This document shows, in pieces, positions 3,556-9,489 of a stretch of DNA of 20,000 nt. The stretch lies in the IMG/VR virus record IMGVR_UViG_3300031992_000075; one strand, written 5' to 3'. A program made the position numbers and the translations under genes. The first letter of the stretch is position 1. Each line of letters opens with the position of its first letter. Under the pieces are notes generated by a model. The model was not told where the DNA came from, searched no databases, and saw nothing but the letters and a program-made list of their open reading frames with translations. Origin of the DNA: an uncultured virus (IMG/VR IMGVR_UViG_3300031992_000075). Its lineage: Duplodnaviria; Heunggongvirae; Uroviricota; Caudoviricetes.

Positions 3556-3939
3556 TTATTTCTTTTGCTTCTTTTTCTTTTCCTGACGAACAGGTATTTC
3601 TATTTCCTCACCCATTTTTAGATTTTTGTTTGCGCCTAATCCAGACATAAACGATTCCAACTTTTGATTAGCCTCATAAGCCTCTTTGTAACCATTCCAA
3701 ACTTTCTTGTCTACGCCTTTTAGGTATTTCGTATGCGTGTTATCTACAGCTAAAAACTGAATTTGGGCAATGGATAATCTATATAGATAATCATCTAGGT
3801 TGTACTGGGTGAAAACCTTTAGGAAGTCGCTTGCGTCTGCAATGATTGTGCTTCCGTAAATAGTGATGCTGTCTCCTCCGATTTCTTCTTCCGCATCAGC
3901 AGAGAATCGGAAAGCGTACTCACCGATTTTTTGAGTAAA
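3556..3939 (-). CDS. Tail assembly chaperone gpT-like segment, probably expressed as a G-T fusion by -1 frameshift (~283 aa fusion)
   Basis: Open -1 frame overlapping the upstream chaperone ORF, with no convincing start of its own. Entered at the T9 slippery run and ends just before the tape measure start. Sequence ...GGDSITIYGSTIIADASDFLKVFTQYNLDDYLYRLSIAQIQFLAVD... Confidence 0.8.
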   Translation of the reverse strand, partial: FTQKIGEYAFRFSADAEEEIGGDSITIYGSTIIADASDFLKVFTQYNLDDYLYRLSIAQIQFLAVDNTHTKYLKGVDKKVWNGYKEAYEANQKLESFMSGLGANKNLKMGEEIEIPVRQEKKKKQKK

Positions 3940-4406
3940 AAAAAACCAGACAGGTCTATGGACTTGATAGCACCAAGGATAATAGCTGCCCATTGGTTTG
4001 TGTCAAAGGTGCTATTCATAACCTTTGCTTTCATAATGGAAATCATCTTGTCATTCCGTGACATAACACTATCCACATCATCGTATGTGTGTATGTCATC
4101 TGGTGTGAACCTATGGTTGCATAAGACAATGGCCATTATTTCACACATCGCATCCAAATCGGTACACAAGGCCATTAAAATCTTATTGTCCGTGTCCAAG
4201 GATTCATCCATCTTGCGCATTTCCATGACAAGCCTACAGATTCGGTATAAAGCATAATAACGCATGTTCTTAACAGCGTATTCTTTGTTGCCTATCTTTA
4301 CCAGTGATGGGGAATCGCTAATGATGTCAAGAATATCTCGCTTTACATCTACCGAAAAATCCTCTAGTTCGTTACTTATCTTATCTTTGGTGTCTTTTTT
4401 TGCCAT
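3819..4406 (-). CDS. Tail assembly chaperone gpG-like (195 aa from MAKKDTKD; alternative ATG at 4412)
   Basis: Sits between the major tail protein and tape measure genes; helical; internal slippery site GGT TTT TTT TTA. The TTG start at 4436 in the ORF track falls inside the terminator U-tract and is unlikely. Confidence 0.82.
   Translation of the reverse strand: MAKKDTKDKISNELEDFSVDVKRDILDIISDSPSLVKIGNKEYAVKNMRYYALYRICRLVMEMRKMDESLDTDNKILMALCTDLDAMCEIMAIVLCNHRFTPDDIHTYDDVDSVMSRNDKMISIMKAKVMNSTFDTNQWAAIILGAIKSIDLSGFFLLKKSVSTLSDSLLMRKKKSEETASLFTEAQSLQTQATS
3905..3945 (-). other. Programmed -1 ribosomal frameshift signal: slippery heptamer plus 3' stem-loop
   Basis: On the - strand: T TTT TTA (3942-3936) within a T9 run (3945-3937), spacer CTCAAAA (7 nt), then hairpin AATCGG-TGAG-TACG-CTTT-CCGATT (3928-3905). 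Confidence 0.8.
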
Positions 4407-4434
4407 AGCCATCCATAACATTTGATTTGTGAAC

Positions 4435-4474
4435 AAAAAGGGCGTTTACAGGGCTTACCCCTATAAAACGCCCC
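4435..4474 (-). terminator. Rho-independent terminator downstream of the major tail protein gene
   Basis: - strand GGGCGTTT-T-ATAGGG-GTAAG-CCCTGT-AAACGCCC followed by TTTTTGTT: GC-rich stem with a U-tract, ~45 nt after the stop codon at 4519. Confidence 0.85.
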
Positions 4475-4518
4475 TACGTTCAACTATTATGACAGAATCC
4501 TTGTAAGTGTTCTATCTT

Positions 4519-5031
4519 TTACTCGCCCATGTCGCCCACAATCTTGTACATGTGGTCGTGCTGCTGGGAATCGGTGTAAACCAGTGCGGTAATAGTCACG
4601 CTGTAGTTAAGAGCGCCATCAGCATCCTTTTTCAAAGTACCAATGGTAAGACCCTTGTAGATAACCAGTGAGCCAAAGCCACGTCCAAAATCCAGCTTCC
4701 ATTCCTTTTCGGAAGTGTGAGCCGCAGCAGCGCCCTCGTACACCTCCGCCGTAGTGCTTGTTCCTGCGGTGTAAGTACCACCGAAGATGGGAGAAAGTTC
4801 GGACAGGTCATAGTTGGCCAGTTCAAACGTCATCGTAACTGGGTTGCCTTGGTAGAAGATGTCAAACGGGGCATCATAGAATTCGGCTTCAATCTCTGTT
4901 GAATCGGGTTCGTCCTGTGCAATGGTAAGACCACGCAGAACGCCCATAAACCTAGTGTATTCAACATTGTCAGCTGAACCAACGGCACGATAGCCCAAAC
5001 CAATAGGCTTCAAAGTTGTTTTCTTTGCCAT
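4519..5031 (-). CDS. Major tail (tube) protein, 170 aa
   Basis: Beta-rich tube-like sequence (GLTIAQDEPDSTEIEAEFYDAP, VTMTFELAN, YSVTITAL); between the tail terminator and chaperone genes; GC-richer codon usage like the capsid gene; followed by a terminator. Confidence 0.85.
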   Translation of the reverse strand: MAKKTTLKPIGLGYRAVGSADNVEYTRFMGVLRGLTIAQDEPDSTEIEAEFYDAPFDIFYQGNPVTMTFELANYDLSELSPIFGGTYTAGTSTTAEVYEGAAAAHTSEKEWKLDFGRGFGSLVIYKGLTIGTLKKDADGALNYSVTITALVYTDSQQHDHMYKIVGDMGE

Positions 5032-5038
5032 AACTTAT

Positions 5039-5046
5039 TCCTTTCT
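5039..5046 (-). promoter_or_regulatory. Shine-Dalgarno-like AGAAAGGA, 7 nt upstream of the major tail protein ATG
   Basis: - strand AATTAAAAGAAAGGAATAAGTT-ATG. Confidence 0.65.
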
Positions 5047-5077
5047 TTTAATTGTTTATTTTTTTTACTATATACTT

Positions 5078-5524
5078 TTATTGTTCCAGTTCGCCATCCA
5101 TAATCACCAAAAATGATTTAATGTAGACGTGATATTGGTTTCCTTGTTGTGTGGTTTCTACCGTGTCTATAGAAAGAACATCGTCACCACTGATATAATA
5201 CGCTTGGCTAGTTTCATTGTGTATTGCATTGTTCACAACTTCATTTATGGACGTCTCAAAAGCCTTGTACAAGGTTTTGTTCAGTCGCCCTTTTGTTCTT
5301 TGTGGCACAAATGCGGTAATGGTGCATCGAACAGAGCCAAAAGCATCAAAGTCAAACTCCGAATTATTGTTCATGTTGCCAACATTTAACACCACGAATC
5401 CATCCTTTGTGTCGGAATCGGTTGTTTCCGTAGGCTCACCCATTCGGTAAACATTCTTGGTTACAACATCATACACAAGGTTGTAAAGATAGTCGTATAT
5501 GTCAATTCTTGACTCGTTGAACAT
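5078..5524 (-). CDS. Putative tail terminator/completion protein, 148 aa
   Basis: Size, acidic alpha/beta pattern and position immediately upstream of the major tail protein gene. Confidence 0.65.
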   Translation of the reverse strand: MFNESRIDIYDYLYNLVYDVVTKNVYRMGEPTETTDSDTKDGFVVLNVGNMNNNSEFDFDAFGSVRCTITAFVPQRTKGRLNKTLYKAFETSINEVVNNAIHNETSQAYYISGDDVLSIDTVETTQQGNQYHVYIKSFLVIMDGELEQ

Positions 5525-5549
5525 CGTCGTTGTTTCTTTTGTTTTCTTT

Positions 5550-6071
5550 TTAATACTTCGGCTGGTTTACATGGAATGTAACATGACACAATGGTGTAAG
5601 CGTGCGTTTGATTTCATCATAACGTTGTGACATCACATTGAACTGATACCTCTTTCCATGAAACGTAAATCCACCCTCTAGGTATGCGCCATAAGGTGCA
5701 ACTGCTGCAAACACTATTTCCCATCCTTTTGTTTCGGCGGGTTGGTATTCGTTGACAAACTTTTGTGCTAACGCACGTCCATTTACATCAACACTAATAT
5801 CGGGGCTATATTCGTGTAACACAGAATTAACACTTGCAGATTTTTTTCCATAATAGCCAGAACCTTTTTTCTTTCCATTACAGAATACTACCCATACATA
5901 GGAATCAATCAAGTTGTAAGTCCTGTTAGAAAACTCCCCAGTTGTAGCAATTCTAACAATTTCCTGCTTGGCATATTCAACAAGCCTCTTTGTTTGTTCA
6001 TCGGCAACGTAGTTATACATTTGCCGTTCAAGAGCCTTTTTGTTAAATTGCACACGCGTCCTTGTTGCCAT
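5550..6071 (-). CDS. Putative neck/tail completion protein (HK97 gp10-like), 173 aa
   Basis: Motifs NRTYNLIDSY and AVAPYGAYLEGG resemble the gp10-like 'TGNLR.S' and 'YA.YVE.G' patterns; expected position in the neck module. Confidence 0.7.
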   Translation of the reverse strand: MATRTRVQFNKKALERQMYNYVADEQTKRLVEYAKQEIVRIATTGEFSNRTYNLIDSYVWVVFCNGKKKGSGYYGKKSASVNSVLHEYSPDISVDVNGRALAQKFVNEYQPAETKGWEIVFAAVAPYGAYLEGGFTFHGKRYQFNVMSQRYDEIKRTLTPLCHVTFHVNQPKY

Positions 6072-6075
6072 ATCA

Positions 6076-6411
6076 CTACCAAGCTTTTCGTGTCGAATGA
6101 ATGCTTATGCCACCGATTTGTGATGGTTCTGCATTGTCAACAACAAATTCCAACATTTCACCATATCGTGTGAGAACAATTGAATCACCTTTGCGCGGAA
6201 CTATATATTCATCGTTTTCATCCTTTGTTAGAGGAATGGAAATAATGTAGTCGGCTGTCTGTAATGTCCTGCCCTCATTGTCCGTTACAAGGTGTTCATC
6301 CATAACACCATCATAGACAACAATTTCAGTATCATCATTGTCACCCGTTCCATCTATAATGCGCTTAATAACGCCTATATATGGATATTCTAATATTTCA
6401 TTCCTTATCAT
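6076..6411 (-). CDS. Putative head closure (stopper) protein, 111 aa
   Basis: ATG at 6411 (MIRNEILEYPY) overlaps the end of the upstream gene; small beta-rich protein (PRKGDSIVL) following the adaptor. Confidence 0.65.
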   Translation of the reverse strand: MIRNEILEYPYIGVIKRIIDGTGDNDDTEIVVYDGVMDEHLVTDNEGRTLQTADYIISIPLTKDENDEYIVPRKGDSIVLTRYGEMLEFVVDNAEPSQIGGISIHSTRKAW

Positions 6412-6802
6412 TTGCAGGTAGTGAATCAACGTCCTCGATGGGAATAAACTTTATCTTTCGCCTAGCGTTTTCAAGAATACCAGCACGTTCATCTTCATAT
6501 AGTGTGTATATTCGAATAGCGTACTTAATCTTTTCATCTTGGTAAAAGTCCTGCTCTTGGCCTATCGTTTTTTGATAGCCATTGTGTGACTGTGATAACG
6601 ATGCGGTATTTGAAGGACTAAGCAACACGGCGGTAAATATGATGTCAGCCGTCATAAGTTCTTTTTGTCGCTTTGTAACAACTGCCTCATTGTACGCGTC
6701 ATCCGTAGGGTTGCAACCACGGTCAAGTGCTATCTTGACAAGATTGCTCTCGTCAAATCTCGAATACGTGGTTGATGCTTTAAGCCATTCTAAAACCGTC
6801 AT
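6398..6802 (-). CDS. Putative head-tail adaptor/connector protein, 134 aa
   Basis: First gene after the major capsid gene; helical N-terminus (IALDRG), beta hairpin (SLSQSHNGYQKTIG) and C-terminal helix, as in SPP1 gp15/HK97 gp6-type adaptors. Confidence 0.7.
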   Translation of the reverse strand: MTVLEWLKASTTYSRFDESNLVKIALDRGCNPTDDAYNEAVVTKRQKELMTADIIFTAVLLSPSNTASLSQSHNGYQKTIGQEQDFYQDEKIKYAIRIYTLYEDERAGILENARRKIKFIPIEDVDSLPANDKE

Positions 6803-6856
6803 CGCTATCTCAATCTTTTACTTGTTTCGCATTCCTAAAACCAATCAAAATAGATA

Positions 6857-8134
6857 TTAGTCAGCCGTGGTGGTGTCAACACAAACGTGATACTGCGATT
6901 CATCCAGCACCGTTGCATAACGACCAAGAACGTCCGTGTGGTAAGATTTCAGCATGCCATTAGGCACAACCTTGTTGATGACATTGAGGAATCCTTGAAC
7001 CTTGGCCAAAGAGAACTGAATGCCATTGTTAACCTCACCACTTTGCATAAGTTCCACATCAGCCACCTTTGCATGCACGAGAACACCAGCAAAGCCAAGA
7101 GGACGAAGAACGGCCACACCAGCTTTCCATCCCTTAACGGTGGTGTAAGTGGTGATTCCCTGCACGGTCTGTTGCTCACGCACAATACGAATGGGCGAAA
7201 TCTTGGAAATGGGCGAACGGCTATAAGCCATCAGCTGCTCGTAGGTGATGGAATTAACCGAAGTCTGCGACTGGCCATTTTGTACGATAATCACCTTGTC
7301 GGGAGCATAAAGGGCAATATAACGATTGACCTCTGCAATGAAAGCTGCATTCTTCAACAGAACGTTAACCACCATATCCCAAGGCAAATCCCACTCAAAC
7401 GGAGTTCCATCGGGAATGTAGTTGGCCATCTTGAAGTCCTGCTCAATCTTGCGCATTTGCTCGGGAATGTCAGCCGTAGCATCAGTCCAAACCTTTGCAC
7501 CTGCGGTCTTGTAGTTTGCAAGTGGAATGTAGGCCGATTGGTTAGCAACAACACCACTAAAGCCCTGTGTAGTGGTAGTACCACCAGCAACATTGGTGAC
7601 ATTAATAGTGTTTCCATATTCGCCACCACGGGAAAGCGTTTGTGCAGCCATGTGCGACACACGCAGGTTGTGGGTCTTTATCAAGTCAGCAACGCCACGA
7701 ACAAAGCCAATGACGAGGTTTTGGTCAGCACCAAGTTCGCGCAGACGTGCTTGGAGTTCCAACTTTGACATAGAAGTCTCGAACAATCCTTTACCGTACT
7801 GGTAGATAGAACCAGTCTTCTCGGTTGAACCCTCGGCTTCAAGCTGCATGGTTTCCGAAAGCGGAGCCATTGCGTCAGCCATAGGAACACTACGCTTAAT
7901 GGTTTGACGAACAGTCCATGCGGGATTCTTCTTCAAATCATTGCGGTCAATGTCATATTCATTACCCTCTACGCGGAAATGCTCTTGCCAGAAGAAAGCG
8001 TTCTCTTCGATTTCGATGGTGTTATCAATCAGTGACTGCAAAAAGCCAACATTAGCACCATCCATAAAGCCACGCTGATACAGCTTCTCAATGGCCTCAT
8101 CGGGTGTAAAGTGAAATTTCAGTGCATTTGCCAT
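6857..8134 (-). CDS. Major capsid protein (HK97 fold, probably lambda gpE-like), 425 aa
   Basis: Size and position after scaffold and decoration genes; biased, GC-richer codon usage; motifs PMADAMAPLSET, MAAQTLSRG and KVWTDATADIPEQM typical of gpE-like capsids. Confidence 0.88.
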   Translation of the reverse strand: MANALKFHFTPDEAIEKLYQRGFMDGANVGFLQSLIDNTIEIEENAFFWQEHFRVEGNEYDIDRNDLKKNPAWTVRQTIKRSVPMADAMAPLSETMQLEAEGSTEKTGSIYQYGKGLFETSMSKLELQARLRELGADQNLVIGFVRGVADLIKTHNLRVSHMAAQTLSRGGEYGNTINVTNVAGGTTTTQGFSGVVANQSAYIPLANYKTAGAKVWTDATADIPEQMRKIEQDFKMANYIPDGTPFEWDLPWDMVVNVLLKNAAFIAEVNRYIALYAPDKVIIVQNGQSQTSVNSITYEQLMAYSRSPISKISPIRIVREQQTVQGITTYTTVKGWKAGVAVLRPLGFAGVLVHAKVADVELMQSGEVNNGIQFSLAKVQGFLNVINKVVPNGMLKSYHTDVLGRYATVLDESQYHVCVDTTTAD

Positions 8135-8142
8135 ATCTTGTT

Positions 8143-8150
8143 TCCTTTCT
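8143..8150 (-). promoter_or_regulatory. Shine-Dalgarno-like AGAAAGGA, 8 nt upstream of the major capsid ATG
   Basis: - strand AATTAAAGAAAGGAAACAAGAT-ATG. Confidence 0.65.
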
Positions 8151-8169
8151 TTAATTTAGTGTTTGTGAA

Positions 8170-8841
8170 TTAAATCCAGAAAATGCCATCAATAAGCGAC
8201 TTGTTGTAGGCAAGCACATAAGCGGGCAGGGGCTGCATCTTAGCAATCCAAGCTTGCTTGTTGTACACGCCAGAAACGCTATAGTTCGCATTTTGGAATC
8301 CATATCCCTCGGTGGGAAGCATGTCGCGGTCAGCCTCATTGAACACATTGGGCTTGGGGCAAAGTACGGTTGCGCTTGCTGATGCGGCAGTGCCAGAAGC
8401 CTCAACAAGAATAGTTCCAACGGTAAGTGCGCCAAGGGCGGTGTCAATAGTGACGGTGAACTCTTCGTTAGTCTCGCTATATGTCACGGCGGTAATTTTT
8501 GCCGACTGACCAGTAGTAGCTGCGGTTTGGGGTGCTACCATAATCAGCTGACCAACCTCAGGGGCATCCGAATAGCCATCACCCTTGATGTAAATGGTAG
8601 TTGCAGCGGCAGCACTAGTCTTAGAGATTGCGAACGAACGGAAGATAAGCATGGGTTGACCAGGAGTGTACTGCAAAAGCTGTGCAGCCCAAAGGTGGCC
8701 AAATCCCTTGTTCGGGTTGGCAATAGTGCCACCAAGAAGGATGTTGTTACGGCTTTCGCCATTACCATCCTTTACCCAAACCCATTTGCCGCCACGAACC
8801 TTTCGTGCGGTTTCAAAAAAGTATTGGAGATTCGTTACCAT
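8170..8841 (-). CDS. Putative head decoration (cement) protein, 223 aa
   Basis: Occupies the lambda gpD position between scaffold and capsid genes; Ala/Thr-rich central beta domain (TTIYIKGDG...TVTIDTALGALTVGTILVEA). Confidence 0.65.
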   Translation of the reverse strand: MVTNLQYFFETARKVRGGKWVWVKDGNGESRNNILLGGTIANPNKGFGHLWAAQLLQYTPGQPMLIFRSFAISKTSAAAATTIYIKGDGYSDAPEVGQLIMVAPQTAATTGQSAKITAVTYSETNEEFTVTIDTALGALTVGTILVEASGTAASASATVLCPKPNVFNEADRDMLPTEGYGFQNANYSVSGVYNKQAWIAKMQPLPAYVLAYNKSLIDGIFWI

Positions 8842-8859
8842 AGATGATTTTGTTGTTTT

Positions 8860-9489
8860 TTATTGAACTTTTATTTTACCTAAAGACATTATAAGTTCCT
8901 CGTCACGTTGTTGTTGCTGACGTGGTGCAAGCGGCTTAATATCGCCAATAGAATCTCGAAAGATGTCTTGGAATTGGCTTGTAAGCTTTTTTGCCTGTTC
9001 CTTGTCCTCTTTTTCCAACTCGACTTCATAGTTTGCCGCAAATTTCTCGAACGACGCATGCAAGTCTTGACGAATGTCCTTTTTTGCCAATTCGACAATG
9101 TTCTTAAACTTGGACTTTTTGCTTTCCTCGTTAACGAACTTCTCGTAAGCCTCCAGCTTGTCTTGTACCTCTTTCGGTATTTCGACTTTTGTTTCCTTTG
9201 GCTTGGCAACTTTCTTTTCCAGTTCGGCGATTCGGGTTTTGTACGAGTTTTCTTTCTCCTCAAAAGCCGTTGCCTTTGCTGTTGCAAGTTCCGAGGCACT
9301 ACTAAATGCTGTGTTAAGTGCAAATTTCAAACTTTTTTGCACGGCTTCATCCTCAATGTCACCATCTGGGTCTGCCTTTTGAAAGTGGTCTGCGAATTTG
9401 TCCTTAAAAACATCGGTTAGTGTTTCGGTCGTGTAACTTTTCTCGTTACAATAGTCGTTTACTTTCTGTAAAACTTCTTCTTTTGTCAT
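8860..9489 (-). CDS. Putative capsid scaffolding protein, 209 aa
   Basis: Highly charged K/E-rich coiled-coil protein upstream of the decoration and capsid genes; no protease motif seen. Confidence 0.7.
   Translation of the reverse strand: MTKEEVLQKVNDYCNEKSYTTETLTDVFKDKFADHFQKADPDGDIEDEAVQKSLKFALNTAFSSASELATAKATAFEEKENSYKTRIAELEKKVAKPKETKVEIPKEVQDKLEAYEKFVNEESKKSKFKNIVELAKKDIRQDLHASFEKFAANYEVELEKEDKEQAKKLTSQFQDIFRDSIGDIKPLAPRQQQQRDEELIMSLGKIKVQ

Follow-up and report, generated by a model that had tools for sequence, protein, structure and literature searches.

Bacteroidota are the textbook bacteria that carry but do not use the anti-Shine-Dalgarno (anti-SD) sequence at the 3′ end of 16S ribosomal RNA (rRNA). 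Here, we report on a 20-kb stretch of DNA from an uncultured virus (IMG/VR record IMGVR_UViG_3300031992_000075; Caudoviricetes), analyzed over its whole length of 20,000 nucleotides (nt) and called the window below, in which an extended SD-like motif, AGAAAGGA, precedes the genes for the putative major capsid protein and the putative tail tube protein. The window is a tailed-phage fragment (GC content, 40.6%). On its minus strand, the motif of the capsid gene lies at 8143..8150, 8 nt before the ATG, and the motif of the tail-tube gene lies at 5039..5046, 7 nt before the ATG. Both are complementary to the 16S tail used here, stand at SD spacing, are specific to these genes among their neighbors, and are conserved among relatives down to about 54% capsid identity.

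The capsid gene (6857..8134, minus strand, ATG at 8134) encodes a protein of 425 amino acids (aa), predicted to be the major capsid protein from gene order and from its 55% full-length identity to the protein annotated as major capsid protein in Bacteroides phage C3_41T2LP. This open reading frame (ORF) had no match in Pfam or PHROG, and a profile search of PDB sequences with the protein returned a chance-level match only (E value, 0.12). Its AlphaFold model was poor (predicted local distance difference test score [pLDDT], 54), with weak Foldseek matches (best E value, 2.5e-3), nearly all of which were phage capsid proteins. The tail tube, or major tail, protein (170 aa; gene at 4519..5031, minus strand, ATG at 5031) was modeled with a pLDDT of 74, and the top Foldseek matches were solved siphophage tail-tube chains (Bxb1, TTP polymer, lambda gpV, and YSD1; best E value, 3e-4; TM-scores, 0.4 to 0.6). 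The gene directly precedes two ORFs in the position of tail assembly chaperones and the tape measure gene, so that the 170-aa protein has both the fold and the position of a siphophage tail tube.

Start sites were scored by pairing positions −20 to −3 with the 16S tail CCUCCUUUCU (ViennaRNA duplexfold). Out of 18 called starts, the capsid and tube starts reached −10.3 kcal/mol, and the other 16 were at −3.2 kcal/mol or weaker. An earlier interpretation made from the letters alone (the sequence-only reading) had described strong motifs 8 and 7 nt before these two ATGs, and this observation was confirmed, coordinates included. The exact 8-mer occurs just at these two sites when both strands of the 20 kb are searched; allowing one mismatch, there are 29 matches versus 15.8 expected. 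Although 55 ATG, GTG, or TTG positions in the window pair at −7 kcal/mol or better, the only gene starts among them are these two, and 10 of 881 non-start ATGs reach −8 kcal/mol. In the computed duplex, pairing continues past the CCUCC core and reaches the 3′ end of the tail. The capsid leader is unpaired in the predicted fold, and the tube leader is unpaired from about −40 to +3.

The two ORFs both start with ATGGCAAA, and their leaders have a longer identical stretch in common (ATTAAA..GAAAGGAA), followed by the same first codons. The sequence-only reading had called the leaders near copies, which holds in the window but not in relatives, where the flanks differ freely; the likeness is therefore better attributed to shared constraints (an A/T-rich leader, the motif, and a Met-Ala-Lys/Asn start) than to a duplicated cassette.

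Conservation was assessed in two IMG/VR scans (34 loci and then 80 loci; 156 relatives seen in the second scan), with relatives' capsid identities ranging from 54 to 100%. Identical 30-nt leaders were collapsed before counting, and leaders pairing at −7 kcal/mol or better were counted as SD positive. Of 56 distinct capsid leaders, 49 kept the signal, a complement of 6 to 10 nt of the tail, as did 37 of the 55 distinct leaders of the tube gene; the corresponding means in 200 composition-preserving shuffles were 3.0 (maximum, 7) and 0.7 (maximum, 3). Every SD-positive leader (49 capsid, 37 tube) had a gap of 6 to 10 nt between motif and ATG. What is conserved is a set of sliding substrings of one 10-mer, AGAAAGGAGG, with variable flanks. 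Capsid leaders carried AGAAAGGA (17 leaders), AGAAAGGAGG (8), AAAGGAGG (6), AAGGAGG (4), AGAAAGGAG (4), and others, and tube leaders carried AGAAAGGA (24), AGAAAGG (9), GGAGG (2), and others. Among the 37 SD-positive tube leaders, 33 have the rare G able to pair with C1543 (as AGAAAGG or AGAAAGGA). Pairing thus spans 8 nt in the window and up to all ten tested nucleotides in relatives (AGAAAGGAGG against CCUCCUUUCU); because the matched block slides along AGAAAGGAGG, pairing with rRNA is indicated.

The capsid tree was built by neighbor joining in Biopython, with Fitch counts and without support values. On this tree, 63 of 71 distinct proteins carry the signal, including those of all the deepest branches; parsimony requires 6 gains or losses of the signal and 13 transitions between four motif classes. 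Presence of the SD before capsid and before tube is associated across genomes (34/14/2/6; Fisher P = 0.02, uncorrected for phylogeny). The cultured relative C3_41T2LP has GAAAGGAG seven nt before its capsid ATG. Two further observations concern individual loci. In L006 and L034 (and again in L058 and L096), a single natural G-to-A change (AGAAAAGA) removes the capsid SD while the rest of the leader is almost identical; in L006 and L034, the altered site spans positions about −16 to −9 relative to the capsid ATG (position 6001), and the tube SD of these genomes is intact. Locus L004 has two tandem tail-tube paralogues (4735-5214 and 5237-6025), each with its own GGAGG-type SD (−9.3 and −11.0 kcal/mol).

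Neighboring late genes were counted by the same procedure on the same loci, again as distinct leaders. In the window, two genes upstream of the capsid gene (8860-9489 and 8170-8841) and four small genes in the head-tail connector position between capsid and tube (5078..6802) belong to the same minus-strand block and lack an SD. In relatives, the signal was found in 0 of 66 leaders of the gene before capsid (8170-8841 in the window), in 1 of 33, 4 of 52, 1 of 61, and 4 of 65 leaders of the four connector-position genes, in 0 of 29 and 2 of 24 leaders of the chaperone-position genes, in 0 of 22 tape measure leaders, and in 1 of 44 portal leaders. Higher counts were obtained for the first gene of the block (8860-9489; 18 of 53 leaders [34%]) and for a holin-like gene (5 of 17). 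The sequence-only reading had made conservation before capsid and tube across the clade its proposed check, and the counts favor it, with most of the neighboring late genes carrying the signal in just 0 to 8% of leaders. Orthologue groups represented in 3 or more of 6 genomes numbered 49, and only two were always SD led: the capsid gene (6/6) and the gene of a 110-aa late protein (4/4); tail-tube orthologues were SD led in 4 of 6 genomes.

The latter gene is a third case of a conserved SD-led late gene; it is located outside the window, encodes about 110 aa (phrog_31654, without known function), and is found downstream of large tail-fiber-type genes (L039:14413-14745, minus strand; L043:15598-15936, minus strand; L049:14256-14591, plus strand; L053:17749-18090, plus strand). 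Its leader is of GGAGG type in 4 of the 4 genomes that have the gene. The protein had no Pfam match, and its only PHROG and Atlas matches were unnamed; it may be another abundant virion component.

The intergenic gaps that hold the two motifs of the window are short (35 and 46 nt) and fall within one same-strand block of eleven ORFs. Just after the tail-tube gene, a terminator-like hairpin followed by a U run was called at 4436..4477 (minus strand); the 111-nt stretch there folds at −38.9 kcal/mol (z = −5.0), and a terminator role would fit this structure. Between the tube and tape measure genes, ORFs 3556-3993 and 3819-4436 (minus strand) overlap, in the position of a frameshifted tail assembly chaperone pair. 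Contigs from RNA libraries (two runs, one sample) have a depth of 12 to 33 over 4167-9460 and of 6 or less on the listed pieces elsewhere. These depths hint at a head-to-tube transcription unit, although contigs cannot rank genes, show RNA ends, or establish such a unit; the runs were chosen using the window stretch itself, and their depths are not counted as evidence here.

The host is most likely a member of the Bacteroidales, in agreement with the Bacteroidota host assumed by the sequence-only reading. The only cultured relative, Bacteroides phage C3_41T2LP (74 kb), was isolated on Bacteroides uniformis. The sequence TAnnTTTG, which we take to be the Bacteroides −7 promoter motif, has 17 to 29% of its occurrences in the intergenic 7 to 10% of five full genomes. 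Phages of Bacillota generally have an SD before nearly every gene, in contrast to about 14% of genes in this clade. Pooling of 545 SD-less leaders from five full relatives and the window gave maxima of A at −14 to −12 (0.55 to 0.65), −6 (0.52), and −3 (0.55), matching the pattern described for Bacteroidia leaders (A at −3, −6, −12, and −13; McNutt et al. 2023, PMC9976891). Separately, in the SD-less leaders of the window and L035-L056, position −1 is most often T (58%), and G is scarce all along the leader (8 to 22%). The 16S tail given in the sequence-only reading is consistent with the oligonucleotides ACCUCCUUUCU and AGAAAGGAGGU of Jha et al. 2021 for Flavobacterium johnsoniae, which also agree with the tail used for scoring (PMC7797042). 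The 10-mer AGAAAGGAGG is both the exact complement of this tail and the first ten nt of the “SD” oligonucleotide AGAAAGGAGGU, which was used against F. johnsoniae 30S subunits. The tail used here also agrees with ACCUCCUU, reported for all Bacteroidetes 16S genes (PMC3155529).

SD use in the rest of the genome was examined in C3_41T2LP (117 annotated coding sequences) and four near-complete IMG/VR genomes; IMG/VR genes were called with a simple longest-ORF caller using the first ATG, which was also applied to C3_41T2LP. Genome-wide statements rest on these relatives, which have 89% capsid identity or less. At −8 kcal/mol or better, 9 to 23 genes per genome (7 to 17%) were SD led, versus 1 to 4% of non-start ATGs; at −7 kcal/mol, the count was 87 of 617 genes (about 14%) in the five full relatives, and by a measure using the 8-nt anti-SD, it was 65 of 632 (about 10%) versus 16 of 632 in a mock window. 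SD signals are thus enriched at true starts over background in start versus non-start, mock-window, and shuffle comparisons, and the claim that the phage's other genes lack SD sites, while true of the 16 other starts in the window, fails for the genomes as a whole. A GGAG/GAGG core was used by 67 of the 87 SD-led genes. When 62 of the SD-led genes besides capsid and tube were scanned against PHROGs, most were without a named function and many lay in nonstructural regions; those named included a DNA methyltransferase, a MazG-like pyrophosphatase, and an endolysin, to which the DNA polymerase of C3_41T2LP can be added. SD sites are therefore not confined to late genes: besides the DNA polymerase and methyltransferases, numerous small ORFs that lie outside the structural module are SD led. 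Because SD-led genes also occupy replication and early-looking regions, a switch confined to late infection, the stage named in the sequence-only reading, is argued against. SD frequency was 11 to 19% irrespective of a gene's spread among the five genomes, and SD-led genes had no GC or length anomaly; import of the SD-led genes was ruled out by this even frequency and by the absence of a GC shift.

The sequence-only reading had also proposed a search of the genome for bS21 or other ribosome-binding proteins. Searches for bS21, bS18, and bS6 (PF01165, PF01084, and PF01250) found each in 0 of 5 near-complete relatives, with positive controls, and gave no Pfam match among the window ORFs. The nearest record (G001, a 5.3-kb fragment estimated to be 7% complete) likewise had no match to PF01165. 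A search for an SD decoy or tail-mimic RNA (copies of the 10-mer with no more than 1 mismatch that are not followed by a start codon) gave nothing convincing. What stands of the sequence-only reading is a conserved 16S-tail complement at SD spacing that is specific, within the late module, to capsid and tube; the genome-wide absence of SDs and a phage bS21 are not supported.

We consider it probable that both motifs are true extended SD elements that raise ribosome recruitment to the capsid and tube genes and set the stoichiometry of the two proteins by translation. The motifs would pair with the last eight nt of the host 16S tail (up to ten in relatives) and, lying in unstructured leaders of internal cistrons in a long late operon, would recruit ribosomes directly to these two genes. 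Their products would be needed in hundreds of copies per virion and those of their neighbors in about a dozen; the low-copy head-tail neighbors, apparently in the same strand block, would use the ordinary A-rich, SD-less start context of Bacteroidota, and translation, not transcription, would then set capsid and tube stoichiometry. We infer that the pairing raises initiation and that the host is a member of the Bacteroidales whose mature ribosomes hide the anti-SD. Bacteroidia ribosomes are described as hiding the 16S tail in a bS21/bS18/bS6 pocket (PMC9976891), and access to it might be gained by three routes: a standing subpopulation of bS21- or bS18-free ribosomes, of the kind described for rpsU in Flavobacterium; a long duplex that, once seeded at the 3′ end of the tail, pulls the tail from its pocket; or an infection-induced change or phage factor. 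A narrower form of this proposal, which we hold only tentatively, is that of a private channel, with the extended SDs silent on masked host ribosomes and read by free-tail ribosomes, either standing bS21/bS18-poor ones or a pool enlarged by infection through a factor other than a ribosomal protein, so that capsid and tube would be pushed above their operon neighbors.

Several observations weigh against an SD function of this kind. Against the 8-nt anti-SD ACCUCCUU (16S nucleotides 1534-1541; Jha et al.), both motifs score only −4.9 kcal/mol; compared with −10.3 kcal/mol for the full tail, this means that the strength of the motif depends on the last three tail nucleotides (UCU) pairing too, and the tail CCUCCUUUCU was taken from published sequences, not from the host's own 16S. 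Bacteroidia ribosomes are reported not to recognize the SD in vivo or in vitro (PMC9976891; PMC7797042), so that a simple constitutive enhancer is not expected, and adding, removing, or extending an SD left reporter output unchanged in Prevotella bryantii, a rumen member of the Bacteroidales (PMC3155529). The signal appears dispensable in some lineages, since 7 of 56 capsid and 18 of 55 tube leaders lack it. Two other Bacteroides phages also have unled structural genes. In B40-8, the capsid (MP1; −0.4 kcal/mol) and tail (MP2; +2.0 kcal/mol) genes have no SD, and in crAss001, the capsid gene gp32 has none (+0.1 kcal/mol), which rules out any rule that capsid genes of Bacteroides phages are SD led. 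Finally, a genome labeled as uncultured Roseburia includes in its bin an 11.9-kb contig (L037) whose capsid gene is 90% identical and whose leader is the same. We regard this as probable mis-binning and reject Roseburia as the host, as only about 14% of the genes of the clade are SD led and the remaining leaders have the Bacteroidia A pattern.

The same data bear on four other explanations. That the motifs are a neutral relic of an SD-using ancestor or host, or a chance product of A/G-rich composition, is very improbable. Such an origin would suit the SD-like leaders found before about 14% of the relatives' genes whatever their spread and the loss of the capsid signal at least 6 times, but it is at odds with the excess over shuffled leaders (49/56 and 37/55 versus means of 3.0 and 0.7), with the frequencies of only 0 to 8% in most module neighbors, with retention to about 54% protein identity while the flanks diverge, and with the normal GC content and length of SD-led genes. 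We give somewhat more credence, though still little, to a stabilizer or processing mark, in which a 30S subunit parked on the SD would protect the capsid and tube segments of the RNA and output would be raised through half-life, not initiation rate. The STAB-SD elements of Bacillus are the analogue. The elements do lie in internal intergenic gaps of an apparently long operon, and segmental RNA stability could matter because the unit ends in a strong hairpin immediately downstream of the tube gene; a pure stabilizer, however, would have no need of an ATG spacing held at 6 to 10 nt, and it, too, requires pairing with the anti-SD. Also unlikely, if a little less so, is that the purine block is a protein site, bound by a phage or host translational activator or repressor or by ribosomal protein S1 without any rRNA pairing. 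The identical stretch and first codons shared by the window leaders would fit such a site, as would the proposal that A/G-rich unstructured leaders serve as S1 landing sites in Bacteroidetes (PMC3155529). One fixed sequence would then be expected, whereas the flanks vary and the block shifts in register and length only along the 16S complement (AGAAAGGA, AAAGGAGG, AGGAGG, and GGAGG), and the rare G opposite C1543 recurs in nearly all SD-positive tube leaders; the shared leader as a translational activator site, a possibility raised in the sequence-only reading, is disfavored by the same sliding and extension of the block along the rRNA complement.

The explanation closest to ours, a special case of it and the more daring suggestion of the sequence-only reading, is infection-specific retuning, in which the sites would be inert on normal ribosomes and become active once infection frees the anti-SD through loss, degradation, or displacement of bS21/bS18 or a buildup of immature 30S subunits; SD-led phage genes would then have a translation channel of their own. 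This would reconcile the lack of an SD effect in uninfected P. bryantii (PMC3155529) with a signal under clear selection in the clade; bS21 depletion does raise translation of extended-SD reporters in F. johnsoniae (PMC9976891), and the share of SD-led genes in the clade (about 10%; 65/632 versus 16/632 in the mock window) exceeds the 1.7% reported for Bacteroidia, by methods that are not identical. On the other side, no bS21, bS18, or bS6 homologue was present in the 5 near-complete relatives or among the window ORFs, no candidate effector and no tail-mimic or decoy RNA was identified, and SD-led genes extend beyond late genes to DNA polymerase, methyltransferases, and small nonstructural ORFs. 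Retuning is a minority view among those weighed here, about as credible to us as the private channel, and extended SD elements acting on initiation remain the reading that we prefer.

If extended SD elements are at work, the conservation of long SDs on the two most abundant virion proteins would argue independently, from a natural system, that the hidden anti-SD can serve high-output translation. To our knowledge, Bacteroidota have so far one accepted use for the anti-SD, the feedback regulation of the very proteins that mask it. Full-text literature searches, which did not extend to supplements, found no report of gene-specific SDs on capsid or tail genes of Bacteroidota phages. That the signal has persisted to about 54% capsid identity, despite 6 losses and several shifts of register, suggests that it still works for a few chosen genes in hosts that normally ignore it. 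C3_41T2LP on B. uniformis offers a bench system for when and how the anti-SD is freed, and L006 and L034 are ready-made natural capsid-SD mutants. In practical terms, SD-less starts are presumed both by gene callers and in expression design for gut Bacteroidales.

Among Bacteroides phages, a minority of SD-led genes appears to be common, and which genes these are appears to be lineage specific. In B40-8 (L057), 4 of 46 annotated genes are SD led, and the strongest site, at 40245, stands before the gene that lies immediately upstream of MP1. Of 45 genes in the first 50 kb of crAss001 (L133), 6 are SD led, and AGAAAGGA precedes gp43 (tail tubular) and gp46, at 37052 and 44508.

The closest known counterparts are found in Bacteroidia, in the extended SD leaders of the bS21 and bS18 genes, rpsU and rpsR. 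Like the phage sites, these are described as rare, strong, and unusually long tail complements (PMC7797042 and PMC9976891), serving a few chosen genes in an otherwise SD-less lineage and pairing to the extreme 3′ nucleotides; the lineage of the rpsU/rpsR leaders sequesters its anti-SD, as the host of the phage probably does. In F. johnsoniae, ribosomes without bS21 read extended-SD mRNAs better, and bS21 depletion raises translation of an extended-SD reporter (PMC9976891). The genes led in the phage are those of the capsid and tail tube instead of bS21 or bS18, and because these encode virion proteins, not proteins that occlude the anti-SD, no autoregulatory loop would be expected; the presumed purpose of the phage sites is high output, and that of the rpsU/rpsR leaders is feedback. 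Gene-specific conservation of the SD has a parallel in ribosomal protein genes of the class Bacteroidia, where a strong SD is reported on 66% of rpsR and 82.5% of rplI genes versus 1.7% of all genes (PMC7797042, Table 1) and is also kept on rplF and rplE. By the 8-nt measure, about 10% of the genes of the phage clade are SD led, compared with that 1.7% for Bacteroidia genomes, the methods not being identical.

Bacteroidetes phages that encode bS21 (Chen et al. 2022, PMC9723584) also infect SD-blind hosts, and a link between the state of the anti-SD and late translation has been proposed for them. Unlike those phages, the present clade consists of siphophages of about 75 to 88 kb, of gut or rumen origin, in which no bS21, bS18, or bS6 gene was found and SD-led genes are not limited to late ones. 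In phages of SD-using hosts, graded ribosome-binding sites within one late mRNA of the structural operon likewise set protein ratios; nearly every gene of such hosts has an SD, whereas most genes of the present clade have none and the host class is reported to be SD blind.

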